The notes under the pieces were generated by a model. The model saw nothing but the letters and a program-made list of their open reading frames with translations, searched no databases and was not told the DNA's origin. A stretch of DNA of 64,000 bases, taken from contig CAVYXJ010000013.1 of assembly GCA_963772455.1 (NCBI GenBank), forward strand, positions 96,001 to 160,000, read 5' to 3'. Shown here piece by piece: positions 57,037 through 62,662 of this stretch. This DNA is from Candidatus Bathyarchaeota archaeon. GTDB lineage: Archaea; Thermoproteota; Bathyarchaeia; Bathyarchaeales; Bathycorpusculaceae. Numbering within the stretch: position 1 is the stretch's first letter; each line of letters opens with the position of its first letter. The translations under genes and the position numbers were made by a program.

Positions 57037-57231
57037 TTATATTACAGCCTTAATTTTAGCGCAGTAAAAATTACCATTTTGACGCACAAATGCCGGGCAT
57101 TTTCCATTATAGCAATTCTCAAGCCATTGACATGGAGCTCGAATTTCATGTATTCGAGGCATGTATCCGCGTGAATTAACCATTTCTTGGTGAGTTTCTC
57201 GTTTAGAAATTTGTTTTAAAATTGTTTCCAT
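57037..57231 (-). CDS. Small Cys-rich hypothetical protein
   Basis: 64 aa; GAAGGTG SD; four Cys in the C-terminal half. Confidence 0.5.
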   Translation of the reverse strand: METILKQISKRETHQEMVNSRGYMPRIHEIRAPCQWLENCYNGKCPAFVRQNGNFYCAKIKAVI

Positions 57232-57424
57232 TTCAAAAACACCTTCAAGTTTTGCTAACCTGCTTGAGAAATACTATTGCTAAGTTCCTGTTATTAAAAA
57301 TGTGTTGCAGTAGTTGTACAACAACATAAGCATATAAGCACTAACAAGTTCAAAGAAAAAAACTCTGACTTGGGTATACAAAGTGTTATTTAGCAGTTGG
57401 CGGCTTTCTTTGTTTTGGTGCTGA

Positions 57425-58348
<924 letters not shown>

Positions 58349-60565
58349 TTAAGTCGATGTGAATCGATCGAAAGTTGTAAGGGTGCTCATGGAGCCGCAA
58401 GAGGGGCATTTATGCAGGGTGCCGAACCAGTTTTTCTTGCAGTTATCGCAGAAGCTAACTAGGCGGTTGTAGGTGAAGAATTCTATTGATTGATTCTCCA
58501 TTAGGCGTTGCGTTAAATTCATCAATGCTTCAGGCGTATATTGGGCATCTTCAAGTTCGATGATGCTGAGGTTTCCGCCAGCATTCAACCCTTTCCATCT
58601 CTGTGCTGTCTCAAGCATCTCAGTTTTTATGCTAAGAAGATCAGCAGCTTTCACTTGGAAACGTTTAGCAGTTGAATAATAGGGTTTTTCCCTTGTTCCT
58701 GAAAACTTCACTTTGGCAACGCCGTACCGTTCAATGTCCAATTGTGCCAGTCGCTCAGATGCTTCTGAGCTGCCAAGTATGACTGGGTAGAGACGTTTGC
58801 CATATTTTCTACCGATTTTCTGTTTGAAAGCTAAAAGATTCTGGATTGTCTCTTCTGCAAATTTGCGGCTTTCTTCTGAGTTGACGTTTTTTTCGGTGAA
58901 GGCTTCCGTGGCTTCTTGGAGCCCAGCTAAATTAATTATTCGTGAGCAATTTTCAAGTCGGAAATAGGTGTCGCCGCCTGCTTTTTGCAGAAGAAAAGGC
59001 AATGAAGTTTTGCCGAATTGTTTGAGCGCATTATTCTTTATGCTCAACGCACGGGCGGCAAGCTCAAAACGTTCCCGCATCAACTCATAGAACTTGTTTT
59101 TGTCCTTCTCACATTCAAGAGCAATTCTGGGTAAATTAATAGTTACAAATCCCAAACAACCAGTCCGCAATGTGTCCGTTTCCCAGTCACCTGTCAAATC
59201 AGCTGCGAATTTTATGCCTGAAGAGGAAAAAGCCACGTTTTCGCTCTCCTTCTTAGTCATGTTAGCAAAATAGGGAATCCCACTTTTCGCCGCTAACTGA
59301 TGTGCTTTAAGCAAAACCGATTTAGCGTTTTCGTCACCCAAAGCGGCTTCATTGATTTTTATAACCAGCCTTGGACTAAGCAAAGGTTTACTGATGCTTT
59401 CTTCAGCAAAAACATCGATGACAAGCGATGCCACAAGTTGGCTTTCTTTTGTGAAGTCGCCATATTTACCGTTTGATTTGCCCTGTGGACCGATGGCTTC
59501 TTTTTCAGCAGTAAATTTAGGAATCGAAAGCTCAAGACCCAAAGTAGCCTCAGCATGTTGATTGAGGTTTTGAATAAACAAGCGCAAGTTTTCTTTGATC
59601 TTTTCAACTTCGTATCCCCTAACAAATGGGGCGAGAAAAACATTGAAGTAATTGAAGGTTTGAGTGTGATTTGTTTCTTTGCTAGCGTGCAAAATAACGT
59701 TAAATGCAATTGATAATGCAGATTTTAGGTCGTTAGGAGTTTCCATGGCGACTTGAAGGGGATTGTCGAGTTTGATACCATGTTGAAAGAAATAGCGTAG
59801 ATCATGGATGACTTCGTTGGGTTTCAGTATCCATGTGCCTAAGCCTTCGATGTGGAGGGCTCCTGATAGATGCGCATCGGCAATGTCTCTTGGAAAAACA
59901 TTTAGCAATGTATATTCACCAAGGACGGTTTGGCCTGCTTTGTTAATTGTTGCTTCTGAGTCTTGGGGGTGGTCTTTTGATTCGATTAACGCGGTTACTT
60001 CATGAATTGGCATGCCGACTCTTGTGAGTTTATTGCGGTAATCTTCAAAGCCTTTTTCAACTAAAATGCCGTTCACAACTTCCCTGATTAGCGAGGCTGT
60101 TAGATACTTTGTTTTTGATTTGACGAGGCGTTTTTCAGTTTCTTTAGCGGCTTTCTGAGCCAGTTCCGCTGGAACTTTCGCTTCTTTAATGAGGGAATTA
60201 GCTATTTTGTTAACGTCAAATTCTTCAAGAGTTAAATGCGATGTGCGAACAACCATACCTCGTGGTTTGACTGCTTTCTTTTCTACGCGGTCAGCAACAT
60301 CAAGCACCATTTTGCCAAGGTCAGTTAAGAAATACTTTTTTGCTTCAACATCTGCCTCAACTAAATCAGCTTTTAACAAGAATTTTAGGTGATAAGCGAA
60401 CCTGCCAGCGTCTCTGCTGGGATTCATTTTAAGGTGGTTCATAAGTTCAGTGTAAGATAGGGCGCTTTTGTCGAAGAGTAGGTTTAGGATTTGCAGCCTA
60501 AGCGGTGATGAGACTGCTTTAAGCACTTTGACGCCGCGTGTACGAATCGGAGGCTGATTTACCAT
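58349..60565 (-). CDS. ArsR-like wHTH + ATP-cone + degenerate class III ribonucleotide reductase (NrdD-like) fusion
   Basis: SSPLRLQILNLL...YHLKFL HTH; VRTS..EEFD..KIANSL..SLIRE ATP-cone; DAHLSGALHI, TINLPRIA, CxxC-CxxC; C-terminus RFTST in place of RxxGY. Confidence 0.85.
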   Translation of the reverse strand: MVNQPPIRTRGVKVLKAVSSPLRLQILNLLFDKSALSYTELMNHLKMNPSRDAGRFAYHLKFLLKADLVEADVEAKKYFLTDLGKMVLDVADRVEKKAVKPRGMVVRTSHLTLEEFDVNKIANSLIKEAKVPAELAQKAAKETEKRLVKSKTKYLTASLIREVVNGILVEKGFEDYRNKLTRVGMPIHEVTALIESKDHPQDSEATINKAGQTVLGEYTLLNVFPRDIADAHLSGALHIEGLGTWILKPNEVIHDLRYFFQHGIKLDNPLQVAMETPNDLKSALSIAFNVILHASKETNHTQTFNYFNVFLAPFVRGYEVEKIKENLRLFIQNLNQHAEATLGLELSIPKFTAEKEAIGPQGKSNGKYGDFTKESQLVASLVIDVFAEESISKPLLSPRLVIKINEAALGDENAKSVLLKAHQLAAKSGIPYFANMTKKESENVAFSSSGIKFAADLTGDWETDTLRTGCLGFVTINLPRIALECEKDKNKFYELMRERFELAARALSIKNNALKQFGKTSLPFLLQKAGGDTYFRLENCSRIINLAGLQEATEAFTEKNVNSEESRKFAEETIQNLLAFKQKIGRKYGKRLYPVILGSSEASERLAQLDIERYGVAKVKFSGTREKPYYSTAKRFQVKAADLLSIKTEMLETAQRWKGLNAGGNLSIIELEDAQYTPEALMNLTQRLMENQSIEFFTYNRLVSFCDNCKKNWFGTLHKCPSCGSMSTLTTFDRFTST

Positions 60566-60669
60566 GCCTTATTCACTCCAGAACTCCTCAAACTATGGGG
60601 TTTACCTATTATGAAGGTGCAGATTTTAAACTTAACTAAGAAGCGACATTTGCCAATCATGTTTAACGC

Positions 60670-61719
60670 TTAGACACGGCAGGGCTGTTGTTGACTGATG
60701 CAGTGGATGGTGCCAAACCCGTAAACCAAGTCAACACATCTTATACCAATGACTTTGTGGGTTGGGAACAAGTCCTGGAGAATAGATAGGGCTTTGCTGT
60801 CGTTTTCATGGTCGAAGACTGGAACGAGCACCTTTTGGTTGCCGATGTAGAAGTTTGTGTAGCTTGCAGGTAGCCGTTCATCTTCGTCGCTGATAACTTT
60901 GGGCATGGGCAACTTAACAATCTTGAATTTTCTGCCATCTTGGTCAAGGGATTGGCAGAGAATGTTATAGTTTTCTTTTAGGGTATCGTAGTCTACGTCG
61001 TTTTGATCATCTTGATAAGCGCAAACGATGGTAGATGGGTTAATGAATCGGGCTAAGTCGTCGATGTGGCCGTCAGTATCGTCGCCCAAGATGCCGTTTT
61101 TGAGCCAGATGAAATTGGTTGCCCCCAAGTATTCGGACAAGAATTTTTCAATATCTTTTTTGCATAGATGGGGGTTTCGGTTTCTATTGAGTAGGCATTG
61201 CTCGGTGGTCAGCAAGGTTCCTTTGCCGTTGACATCTATGGAGCCTCCTTCTAAAACAATGCCGGGTTTGAAGCATCGCAGGTTCATTTTTTGGTTGATA
61301 ACATCTGGGATTTGCTTGTCTTTCAGGAGCGTTTCATATTTTTCTCCCCATGAATTAAAGTCCCAATGAATCATGGCCAACTCATGGTTTTGGTTTTTGA
61401 CAAATATAGGTCCATAATCCCTAAACCAAACGTCGGCGTAATCGGAAACGTGGATATGGATTTTATTTAGGTCTATTCTTGTCTCTTTGAACATCTTTTT
61501 AACTTTCTTTTCGGTGACTTCGTCAATCACAAAGAGGTTAACGTGTTCGCCTTCATGAATTTCTTTAATAATTTGAACATAAACAGCTTCTACCCGCTCT
61601 ACCCTATCTGGGAAAGTTGTCGGGTCATAAGGCCAAGCAAGCCAGATTGCGTCGTGTTTTTCCCATTCTGCCGGCATACAAAATCCTTGTTCTCGGCAGC
61701 TCCGATCAGAACTACTCAT
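60670..61719 (-). CDS. aguA: Agmatine deiminase
   Basis: MPAEWEKH, WFRDYGP, LEGGSI, DTDGHID, ASYTNF, GTIHCISQQQP. Confidence 0.93.
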   Translation of the reverse strand: MSSSDRSCREQGFCMPAEWEKHDAIWLAWPYDPTTFPDRVERVEAVYVQIIKEIHEGEHVNLFVIDEVTEKKVKKMFKETRIDLNKIHIHVSDYADVWFRDYGPIFVKNQNHELAMIHWDFNSWGEKYETLLKDKQIPDVINQKMNLRCFKPGIVLEGGSIDVNGKGTLLTTEQCLLNRNRNPHLCKKDIEKFLSEYLGATNFIWLKNGILGDDTDGHIDDLARFINPSTIVCAYQDDQNDVDYDTLKENYNILCQSLDQDGRKFKIVKLPMPKVISDEDERLPASYTNFYIGNQKVLVPVFDHENDSKALSILQDLFPTHKVIGIRCVDLVYGFGTIHCISQQQPCRV

Positions 61720-62662
61720 TTTCTACATCCTTCATATCGTCTTTTAAGAGCTGTTTGTATGTGCTGGGACGGCGGTTACGTAGAAAACCCCAACCTTCCT
61801 GAATTCGTTTATTCTTGCTAAGATCAACTTTGACAATCAAAACCTCTTCTTTGGTTGTGGATGCCTGGTTGAGGATTTTCCCAAATGAATCGCACACAAA
61901 TGAACCTCCCCAAAACTGCAGTTCTCCCTCTTCCCCTACTCGATTAACGGCAGCAACATGAACTCCATTACTTATGGCATGGGCGCGTTGAACAGTTTTC
62001 CAAGCGTCATGCCAGTCACCATCTTCAGAAGTGTAACCCTTAACGTAGCCAATTGCGGTTGGGTAAAAAATAATTTCCGCCCCCTTTAACGAGCATATTC
62101 TTGCGGGTTCAGGGAACCACTGATCATAACAGATAAGCGCACTAATTCGGGCAAAGGGGGTTTCAAAAACCTTGTATTCTGAGTCACCCTCTTCAAAATA
62201 ATCTTTTTCGTAGAAGTACGGGTCATGTGGGATGTGTGCTTTACGGTAGGTACCCAGCAACTCGCCGTTTACGTTGATTACTACAGCTGAATTAAAAAAT
62301 TTACCCCTTTTTGCTTTTTCAAAGAGCGGCGCAATGATGACTAACTTATGCTTTTTAGCCAAATCAGAAAACATTTTTGTGGATTCCCCAGGAATAGCTT
62401 CAGCTAAACCAATGACATCCTGTTTTTCGTGCTGTGGAAAATACTTTGTCCGATAAAGCTCCTGTAAGCAAACAATTTTGGCACCTTTATTTGCGGCTTG
62501 CTCGATTTTTTCCGATGTTTCCTTCATATTTTGGGCTATATTTTCAGAAACAGACGTTTGGATAAGCCCAATGGATACTATTTTATCTATTTTTTTCTTT
62601 AACGCAAATGTGGTTGATTTTTCTTTTTGGACGGCTATTTGATTTTCCTTCCTTGTTTTCAA
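61712..62662 (-). CDS. aguB: N-carbamoylputrescine amidase (carbon-nitrogen hydrolase)
   Basis: LQEL, YRKAHIP, YEKDYF, ICYDQWFPE, YPTAIG; adjacent to aguA. Confidence 0.88.
   Translation of the reverse strand: MKTRKENQIAVQKEKSTTFALKKKIDKIVSIGLIQTSVSENIAQNMKETSEKIEQAANKGAKIVCLQELYRTKYFPQHEKQDVIGLAEAIPGESTKMFSDLAKKHKLVIIAPLFEKAKRGKFFNSAVVINVNGELLGTYRKAHIPHDPYFYEKDYFEEGDSEYKVFETPFARISALICYDQWFPEPARICSLKGAEIIFYPTAIGYVKGYTSEDGDWHDAWKTVQRAHAISNGVHVAAVNRVGEEGELQFWGGSFVCDSFGKILNQASTTKEEVLIVKVDLSKNKRIQEGWGFLRNRRPSTYKQLLKDDMKDVENE

Follow-up and report, generated by a model that had tools for sequence, protein, structure and literature searches.

A catalytically dead class III ribonucleotide reductase fused to a winged helix, a candidate nucleotide-responsive regulator in archaea

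We analysed a stretch of 64,000 nucleotides (nt) from the Candidatus Bathyarchaeota archaeon contig CAVYXJ010000013.1 (the window, whose numbering is used below) and found that the gene at its positions 58349..60565 encodes a class III ribonucleotide reductase (RNR) of the NrdD type that has lost its catalytic residues and bears an ArsR-type winged helix-turn-helix (wHTH) at its N-terminus. Because the family is conserved across an archaeal phylum beside genes for DNA building blocks, it is a probable regulator of such genes. Our preferred reading, to which we assign a probability of roughly 0.6, is that the gene product, no longer an enzyme, is a nucleotide-responsive transcription factor for deoxyribonucleoside triphosphate (dNTP) and pyrimidine supply, driven by its ATP-cone.

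A class III reductase scaffold without its catalytic residues

The frame starts with ATG and runs for 738 codons without an internal stop. Using Pfam, we detected HTH_5 at amino acids (aa) 20-70 (31 bits, cut-off 22), DUF7347 at aa 14-88, the ATP-cone PF03477 at aa 104-176 (27.7 bits, cut-off 25.8) and NRDD at aa 204-734 (241 bits). With the NCBIfam NrdD equivalog TIGR02487 the protein scored 258 bits, under the cut-off of 326, and it fell far under the cut-off of each remaining NrdD model. An AlphaFold2 model of the whole protein, based on an alignment of 54 family members, reached a predicted local distance difference test value (pLDDT) of 90.5 and a predicted template-modelling score of 0.82. 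When this model was compared with the PDB by Foldseek, the top matches were exclusively class III RNRs (those of S. thermophilus, P. copri, T. maritima and phage T4; E 1e-25 to 1e-18, template-modelling score (TM) to the target up to 0.75), class I R1 and PflD appearing only at about 1e-9. An earlier note, made from the letters of the window, had described a wHTH, an ATP-cone, an NrdD barrel and an intact zinc ribbon in one uninterrupted frame of 738 aa, and the Pfam matches, the model and Foldseek all agree with it.

Regarding the N-terminal part, residues 1-100 modelled separately gave a pLDDT of 91 and an alpha1-alpha2-alpha3-alphaR-beta-beta-alpha5 fold, helices alpha1 and alpha5 included. 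Their best Foldseek matches were CadC, HlyU, CzrA, SmtB and NolR, with TM from 0.69 to 0.76 and the whole domain covered. The protein thus has the fold of the ArsR/SmtB family in its first 100 residues, but ArsR/SmtB metalloregulators are stand-alone proteins of about 100-120 aa, whereas here the wHTH is fused to a 640-aa sensor-scaffold. Metal sites in ArsR/SmtB proteins are Cys- or His-rich and lie at alpha3N or alpha5. Residues 1-100 hold two His and no Cys, so a Cys-based metal site is absent from this wHTH; the score with the NCBIfam model HTH_metalloreg (NF033788) was 32.8 bits against a cut-off of 55.

The losses were read from BLASTP against the active NrdD of the same genome, from phmmer and profile alignments to the NrdDs of T4, S. 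thermophilus, P. copri and T. maritima, and from column counts in a 95-row alignment. The finger motif G/C-C-R, which carries the thiyl-radical Cys (G-C-R in T4, C-C-R in the genome's own NrdD), is replaced by G450-I451-K452. The N/Y-C pair after HxHD reads N250-E251, with the second active-site Cys gone, and HxHD itself reads H238-I-E-G, with its second His and its Asp gone. GGQ has become H-T-Q and TPAE has become G-S-S, the NxN flap of active NrdDs is absent, and RxxGY has given way to R734-F-T-S-T and a TAA stop. The 200 nt past the stop contain neither GY nor RxxGY in any frame. The earlier note had listed the finger Cys, the Cys after HxHD (KPNEV), GGQ, TPAE and RxxGY (DRFTST-stop, with no Gly-Tyr in other frames) as lost, and all of these losses stood in the alignments to active NrdDs, those of T4 and T. 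maritima included. PMC11226230 explains what HxHD, the 577-581 loop, the flap, Cys416 and Gly711 do in P. copri NrdD, and assigns substrate triphosphate recognition to HxHD and the TPAE loop. The protein thus shares with the class III NrdDs of T4, T. maritima, P. copri and S. thermophilus the common fold, the cone, the linker, the NLPR, GL-E and R-LD motifs and the C-terminal zinc ribbon with its four Cys; unlike them, it carries an extra wHTH and lacks both active-site Cys (thiyl and second), the glycyl-radical domain and the motifs for binding substrate phosphate. Judged by its residues, it cannot work as a glycyl-radical RNR.

These features are common to a large family. A word-indexed homologue search listed 120 clusters at 75-99% identity, 117 of them with all four Pfam domains, and an exhaustive phmmer search of 1.84 billion representatives gave 1870 matches at E <=1e-3 and 338 at E <=1e-30. 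The frame is intact across hundreds of genomes at 25-97% identity. Among the best 150 phmmer representatives (each standing for a 50%-identity cluster), 81 have the winged helix, of which 70 are full-length. The second Cys is present in 0/70, G-C-R in 1/70, an RxxGY-like motif in 2/70 and all three in 0/70, compared with all three radical residues in 8/23 full-length representatives without the HTH. Since architecture and losses recur in 70/70 full-length HTH-bearing representatives, they are far beyond chance. Most named copies in the databases, those of aerobes included, are called 'anaerobic ribonucleoside-triphosphate reductase'.

In an IQ-TREE phylogeny of 58 rows (a quick search, rooted on a long branch), every HTH-bearing protein falls in one clade with a Shimodaira-Hasegawa-like approximate likelihood-ratio support of 100; the clade also takes in the truncated row P0184, from a cluster with a member of 767 aa. 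It is sister to the archaeal active NrdDs, a subclass with the same V-R-T-S cone (see below). According to this tree, the family arose once from an archaeal class III RNR.

To this we add the strength of selection, given as pairwise ratios of nonsynonymous to synonymous substitution rates (dN/dS) among 21 Bathyarchaeia orthologues, with usable dS in 49/210 pairs. The ratios were 0.021 for the HTH, 0.036 for the cone, 0.076 for the barrel, 0.058 for the ribbon and C-terminus and 0.069 overall, values that are rough, with dS near saturation (about 1.1-1.4), yet far below 1. The homologues therefore share the losses under strong purifying selection, as the reading in the earlier note implied. The orthologue has a broken frame in 2/22 translated loci, L016 (651 aa) and L063 (511 aa), where a real frameshift and an assembly error are indistinguishable.

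Comparing 71 family rows with nine active NrdDs, we found 35 positions conserved in both, comprising the cone core, H232, G235, D255, the NLPR, GL-E, R-LD, Y and GG motifs and the four Cys. Another 71 positions conserved in the enzymes are free in the family, all active-site motifs among them. Positions conserved in the family only number 37, and 33 of them lie at residues 107-249, spread over cone, linker and first barrel strand. From Bathyarchaeia to Nitrosopumilaceae there is almost no change in the recognition helix DAGRFAYHLKF (pattern D/E-x-G-K/R-F-x-Y-H-L-K/R). In the cone, V106, R107, F116 and I121 are invariant in 54 rows; it reads V-R-T-S compared with V-x-K-R-D-G in canonical cones, K-R-D-G being aligned to R-T-S-H, and it retains the E-x-F, K-I and Y-R signatures. 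The same V-R-T-S cone is found in the bona fide NrdDs that adjoin the family gene at two distant loci, L137 and L127. Because family-only conservation sits in the cone and linker and the substrate-binding motifs have decayed, the ATP-cone is likely the sensor and the barrel the scaffold. The earlier note had proposed that the RNR scaffold as such was repurposed as an allosteric sensor; the idea of a sensor may well hold for the cone, but the old substrate pocket is not where conservation lies.

Other NrdD homologues came up in the same searches. Second matches in genomes of family f21 were considered as paralogues and rejected, as they are ordinary NrdDs with the V-R-T-S type of cone. Many genomes of the phylum also have stand-alone open reading frames (ORFs) of about 92-128 aa for small single-domain proteins, whose weak match to TIGR00244 is confined to its ATP-cone part. 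A second type of apparently dead NrdD was seen in P0245, P0254, P0264, P0271, P0192, P0206, P0228 and P0238, none of which has the finger Cys motif. Pfam, applied to these except P0238, gave two ATP-cones in six, one in P0228 and an HTH in none. Their NRDD match stops near profile position 465-531 of 562, so they are without the glycyl-radical domain and most are without the zinc ribbon; the tree splits them into two groups, each nested among the active NrdDs of archaea. Finally, NrdD homologues of 1000-1700 aa (P0172, P0173, P0190, P0191, P0200-P0202, P0213, P0226, P0227 and others) are matched in 2-5 separate stretches, have canonical glycyl-radical C-termini in most cases and are probably active NrdDs bearing inteins.

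Distribution, neighbouring genes and the genome's own reductase

A scan for the recognition-helix pattern in one genome per species found at least 599 stretches (598 of them confirmed), and nearly all of the best 80 bear the label Bathyarchaeia or Bathyarchaeota. Of 401 genomes drawn evenly from the phylum, 293 had a match to the N-terminal 200 residues, about 40 of these matches being weak (E >1e-15) and possibly other cone or HTH proteins. Some taxonomic families are saturated with this module (f15 56/56, f28 24/24, f23 17/17) and others are nearly empty of it (f25 0/12, f30 0/15, f24 2/23). Family f15 is Nitrosopumilaceae, with the names Nitrosotenuis aquarius, N. cloacae and N. chungbukensis; ammonia oxidisers of the Nitrosotenuis type are aerobes. 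The names on distant clusters include Jordarchaeia/Freyarchaeota, Ranarchaeia, Culexarchaeum and Nitrososphaerota, with Asgard names among the homologues.

Downstream of the gene in the window, and on the opposite strand, lies pyrB (391 bits with TIGR00670, cut-off 237). The two genes abut tail to tail, as the earlier note had it, with their TAA stops meeting at 58348/58349. In Bathyarchaeia pyrB is present in 74/80 loci, most of the misses being contig ends, and it is on the opposite strand and convergent in 73/74; in 53 loci the two stop codons are separated by 0-9 nt, and the median spacing is 5 nt. Other neighbours vary, with agmatine deiminase in 15, a CN hydrolase in 16 and a malate/lactate dehydrogenase in 17 of the 80 loci. 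In Nitrosopumilaceae the neighbour is a B12-dependent class II RNR, NrdJ (TIGR02504, 728 bits), which adjoins the family gene in 22/23 loci, in tandem downstream in 21 and divergent in one, with gaps of 141-435 nt in the 19 tandem loci measured. Among 19 other distant genomes, a nucleotide gene immediately adjoins in 14: NrdJ or another class I/II RNR downstream at three loci, an active NrdD downstream at two (once behind a glutaredoxin), a dCTP deaminase downstream at one, a convergent pyrB at five and a convergent pyrI at three, two of the latter also with a divergent archaeal UMP kinase gene (pyrH). This association with RNRs of several classes points to a protein that acts on RNR or nucleotide genes and would otherwise be hard to explain.

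The assembly of the window's genome (2.45 Mb, 92% complete) holds a separate, complete RNR system, which the earlier note had thought worth looking for. On contig C5, nrdR, nrdD and nrdG lie in a row (L001:701-3962, promoter region L001:600-690). The nrdR gene (L001:701-1147) scored 154.6 bits with TIGR00244; nrdD scored 1073 bits with NF006126 and has C-C-R and R-V-V-G-Y; nrdG, the sole NrdG over the cut-off in the genome, scored 178.5 bits with TIGR02495. None of the 18 NrdG-like or radical-SAM matches in the genome is on the window's contig, in line with the earlier observation that no nrdG is nearby, and no class I/II RNR barrel (PF02867) was found in the genome. The active NrdD is 25% identical to the window protein and belongs to another subclass in the tree. 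The dead RNR was also considered as a replacement for PyrI, and this was rejected, as pyrI is present on contig C5.

NrdR exceeded its cut-off in 25 of the 401 genomes, each of them a member of f1, the window's own family. This restriction suggests a single lateral acquisition of the nrdR-nrdD-nrdG operon, which is of bacterial type, displacing the native archaeal nrdD. NrdR is described as 'rare in archaea' in PMC9110341. At the distant locus L137 the order is family gene, nrdD and convergent pyrB, which suggests that the pyrB abutting the gene in the window is what remained after the native nrdD was lost and the operon gained. The earlier note had called the protein an archaeal functional analogue of NrdR, a reading that is borne out in part: the analogy fits lineages without NrdR, where the gene sits upstream of RNRs or beside nucleotide genes, but the window's own genome has a true NrdR, so there the protein does not stand in for NrdR.

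A proposed transcription factor for nucleotide supply and its alternatives

We infer the DNA binding, ligand, oligomeric state, targets and sign of regulation of such a factor within the following scheme. The NrdD-like core and the zinc ribbon would provide a stable scaffold, probably dimeric, and the ATP-cone would bind ATP or dATP. Through the conserved linker between cone and barrel, nucleotide binding would alter the way in which the pair of ArsR-type winged helices at the N-termini faces DNA, and transcription of the dNTP and pyrimidine supply genes, whether raised or lowered, would thereby track the nucleotide pool. The likely targets would vary by lineage, including the RNR gene immediately downstream where NrdR is absent. 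In the window's family, which has nrdR-nrdD-nrdG, the retained target would more likely be pyrB or other nucleotide genes together with the gene's own promoter.

Several observations weigh against this proposal. The ATP-cone is just above the Pfam cut-off and has no second basic residue of the K-R pair, a residue that contacts phosphates in P. copri NrdD according to PMC11226230. With its own NrdR and a long inverted repeat directly upstream of nrdR-nrdD-nrdG, the window's genome may not need the dead RNR for RNR control. Tail-to-tail is an unusual layout for a regulator and its target, and the arrangement with pyrB may be inherited synteny, as the order at L137 would allow. The neighbourhood counts, with no adjoining nucleotide gene in 5/19 distant loci, are drawn from related genomes that are non-independent samples. 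Operator searches in the window's genome were also unfavourable: the 40-nt block of the gene's own promoter, which is kept in 34 Bathyarchaeia loci irrespective of the upstream gene, has this single occurrence in the genome; a motif of the AAACTGATCYA type gave 55 loose matches in the 2.45 Mb and no cluster; and a matrix made from a conserved block upstream of nrdJ in Nitrosopumilaceae gave 177 matches, compared with 137-164 in shuffled genomes.

No meaningful second site for the half of the promoter block next to the transcription start site (TSS) was found in the window's genome, the nrdJ-upstream matrix was weak in other lineages too, the 8-mers common to the promoters of the family gene and of the downstream RNR (L126, L127, L137) were AT-rich and uninformative, and an alignment of pyrB promoters (about 57360-57427 in the window) had no block in common with the family promoter. 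In the window's genome, these searches revealed no operator common to the family gene and the pyrB, nrd or other promoters.

In the Nitrosopumilaceae loci L146-L164, arrays of up to six AAA-N-TGATC-Y-A repeats lie in the 250 nt upstream of the family gene. The exact 11-mer of the AAACTGATCYA type occurs five to seven times per 1.6-Mb genome in three Nitrosopumilaceae genomes tested, and 2/7 of the genome-wide copies in one and 2/6 in another fall within 200 nt of the family-gene start. These arrays are candidate autoregulatory sites. Between the family gene and nrdJ, some 40 nt ahead of the TATA box of nrdJ, these loci keep the block G-G-T-G-T-C-A-A ... T-T-G-A; in front of it stands a short palindrome, its halves covarying between genera (T-A-T-G-A-A/T-T-C-A-T-A vs A-C-G-A-A/T-T-C-G-T). 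We regard the block, too, as a candidate site in Nitrosopumilaceae; neither it nor the arrays carry over to the window's genome.

One could argue that the protein is a transcription factor with another signal, sensing a dNTP at the old specificity site, redox state or metal through the zinc ribbon, or a metabolite, with a regulon that is perhaps pyrimidine or polyamine rather than RNR genes. The atypical, weakly scoring V-R-T-S cone and the four invariant ribbon Cys would fit this, as would the fact that the conserved partner in the window's family is pyrB and not an RNR, and that agmatine deiminase and an N-carbamoylputrescine-amidase-like gene lie upstream in some loci. However, most of the family-specific conservation is in the cone and linker, active NrdDs have the same type of cone, and the polyamine genes are not conserved (15-16/80 loci) next to a gene that has its own promoter, so we consider such a signal unlikely. 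A partner other than DNA is slightly less likely again. Here the protein would be a non-catalytic allosteric subunit that tunes NrdD, NrdJ or aspartate carbamoyltransferase by nucleotide levels, its wHTH serving protein contacts or autoregulation only. The NrdD core is normally dimeric, which makes a heterodimer with an active paralogue conceivable in the genomes of L137, L127 and f21; the association with pyrB and pyrI is very close and of great age, and the barrel is strongly constrained (0.076) despite its decayed pocket. Yet the neighbouring RNR in Nitrosopumilaceae is of class II, with no active NrdD partner in names and searches there, and the window's genome has only an NrdD of a different subclass and has pyrI. 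Moreover, no element is conserved as strongly as the recognition helix, and dN/dS is lowest in the wHTH (0.021), which favours DNA contacts.

That the protein has remained an enzyme, be it an RNR or some other radical enzyme, with an undescribed mechanism and with a regulator domain simply fused to it, is very improbable. Its full-length NrdD fold, predicted with high confidence, and its database name would speak for an enzyme, but the family as a whole has lost both active-site Cys (thiyl and second), the glycyl Gly, HxHD, TPAE, GGQ and the flap, the protein stops at the Gly position with no activase nearby, and the family occurs in aerobic Nitrosotenuis-type ammonia oxidisers beside a B12-dependent RNR. 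A decaying paralogue or pseudogene without function, for which the broken frames in L016 and L063, possibly assembly errors, might be invoked, is refuted by a dN/dS of about 0.07 or lower, by frames intact in hundreds of genomes and by the gene's conserved promoter of its own.

Among known systems, NrdR is the nearest to the transcription factor proposed here: it likewise combines an ATP-cone with a DNA-binding module, its gene lies beside or upstream of RNR genes, and it couples ATP/dATP levels to RNR transcription (PMC9110341), as the proposed factor would be expected to do. However, NrdR has about 150 aa, binds DNA through an N-terminal zinc ribbon and has no RNR core, whereas the family has 738 aa, an ArsR-type wHTH as its putative DNA binder and a whole dead NrdD. 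The window protein has no TIGR00244 match (NCBIfam scan, E up to 1), and the origin of NrdR is independent. Winged-helix regulators built on an enzyme fold are known in MocR/GabR (aminotransferase fold) and NrtR (Nudix fold), and beta-herpesviruses have catalytically dead RNR large subunits, which are of class I and are not transcription factors. All of these share with the family the principle of an enzyme scaffold, with catalysis lost or reduced, that is reused for sensing or interaction; none, as far as searched, derives from a class III RNR or has an ATP-cone. No description of the family was found in open-access full text (PMC, bioRxiv), and a prior mention elsewhere is possible. An RNR-derived regulator with an ATP-cone appears new.

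We give even odds to a wider scenario in which the family would be the ancestral regulator of DNA-precursor supply in TACK and, by names, also Asgard archaea. An ancestor would have duplicated its own class III RNR, killed the chemistry and kept the ATP-cone switch, and the product would govern pyrimidine genes as well as RNRs regardless of class, nrdD being the target in anaerobic Bathyarchaeia and nrdJ that in aerobic ammonia oxidisers. The role of NrdR would then have been invented independently, by the first known transcription factor on an RNR scaffold. The family is a candidate for the missing archaeal regulator of RNR transcription. If this is true, the ATP-cone would have a third home, and a full-size radical enzyme would have been turned into a regulator with its allosteric domain kept. 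The family is present in cultured, globally abundant ammonia oxidisers and can thus be tested at the bench now. When the label 'anaerobic ribonucleoside-triphosphate reductase' is taken as a marker of class III RNR or of anaerobic capacity, false positives result in Bathyarchaeia, Nitrososphaeria and Asgard genomes.

Features of the locus

Table 1. Features of the dead-RNR locus, in window coordinates.
Feature	Position	Strand	Description or evidence
Whole gene	58349..60565	-	738 aa: wHTH + ATP-cone + NrdD-like barrel + zinc ribbon
ArsR/SmtB-type winged helix-turn-helix, aa 8-99	60269..60544	-	Pfam HTH_5, DUF7347; domain model; Foldseek
ATP-cone, aa 104-176, family motif V-R-T-S	60038..60256	-	Pfam PF03477; alignment
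Linker, aa 177-203	59957..60037	-	Conserved R177, R182, G184, P186; NxN flap absent
NrdD-like ten-stranded barrel, catalytically dead, aa 204-695	58481..59956	-	Pfam NRDD; Foldseek; dN/dS
K-P-N-E-V, aa 248-252	59810..59824	-	Glu251 at the second active-site Cys position
Cys finger loop remnant S-S-S-G-I-K-F, aa 447-453	59207..59227	-	Ile451 at the thiyl-radical Cys position
Zinc ribbon C706, C709, C720, C723	58397..58450	-	Invariant in 54/54 alignment rows
Glycyl-radical loop, F-D-R-F-T-S-T + TAA	58349..58372	-	Ser, Thr at the Gly-Tyr positions; protein end
Own promoter block (TATA-like palindrome + TSS-proximal block)	60599..60639	-	Promoter alignment, 34 Bathyarchaeia loci
pyrB, aspartate carbamoyltransferase	57428..58348	+	Convergent, abutting, conserved partner; TIGR00670

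Directly upstream of the gene, at 60670-62662 (-), lie an agmatine deiminase-type gene (PAD_porph) and an N-carbamoylputrescine-amidase-like CN-hydrolase gene that overlap by 8 nt; present in only 15-16/80 related loci, this polyamine pair is outside the conserved unit. On the other side, an unannotated Cys-rich ORF of 64 aa without a Pfam match (57037-57231, -) is divergent from pyrB and sits in a 514-nt gap after a malate/lactate dehydrogenase gene. Related Bathyarchaeia loci keep both the start region of this ORF and a promoter-like block.

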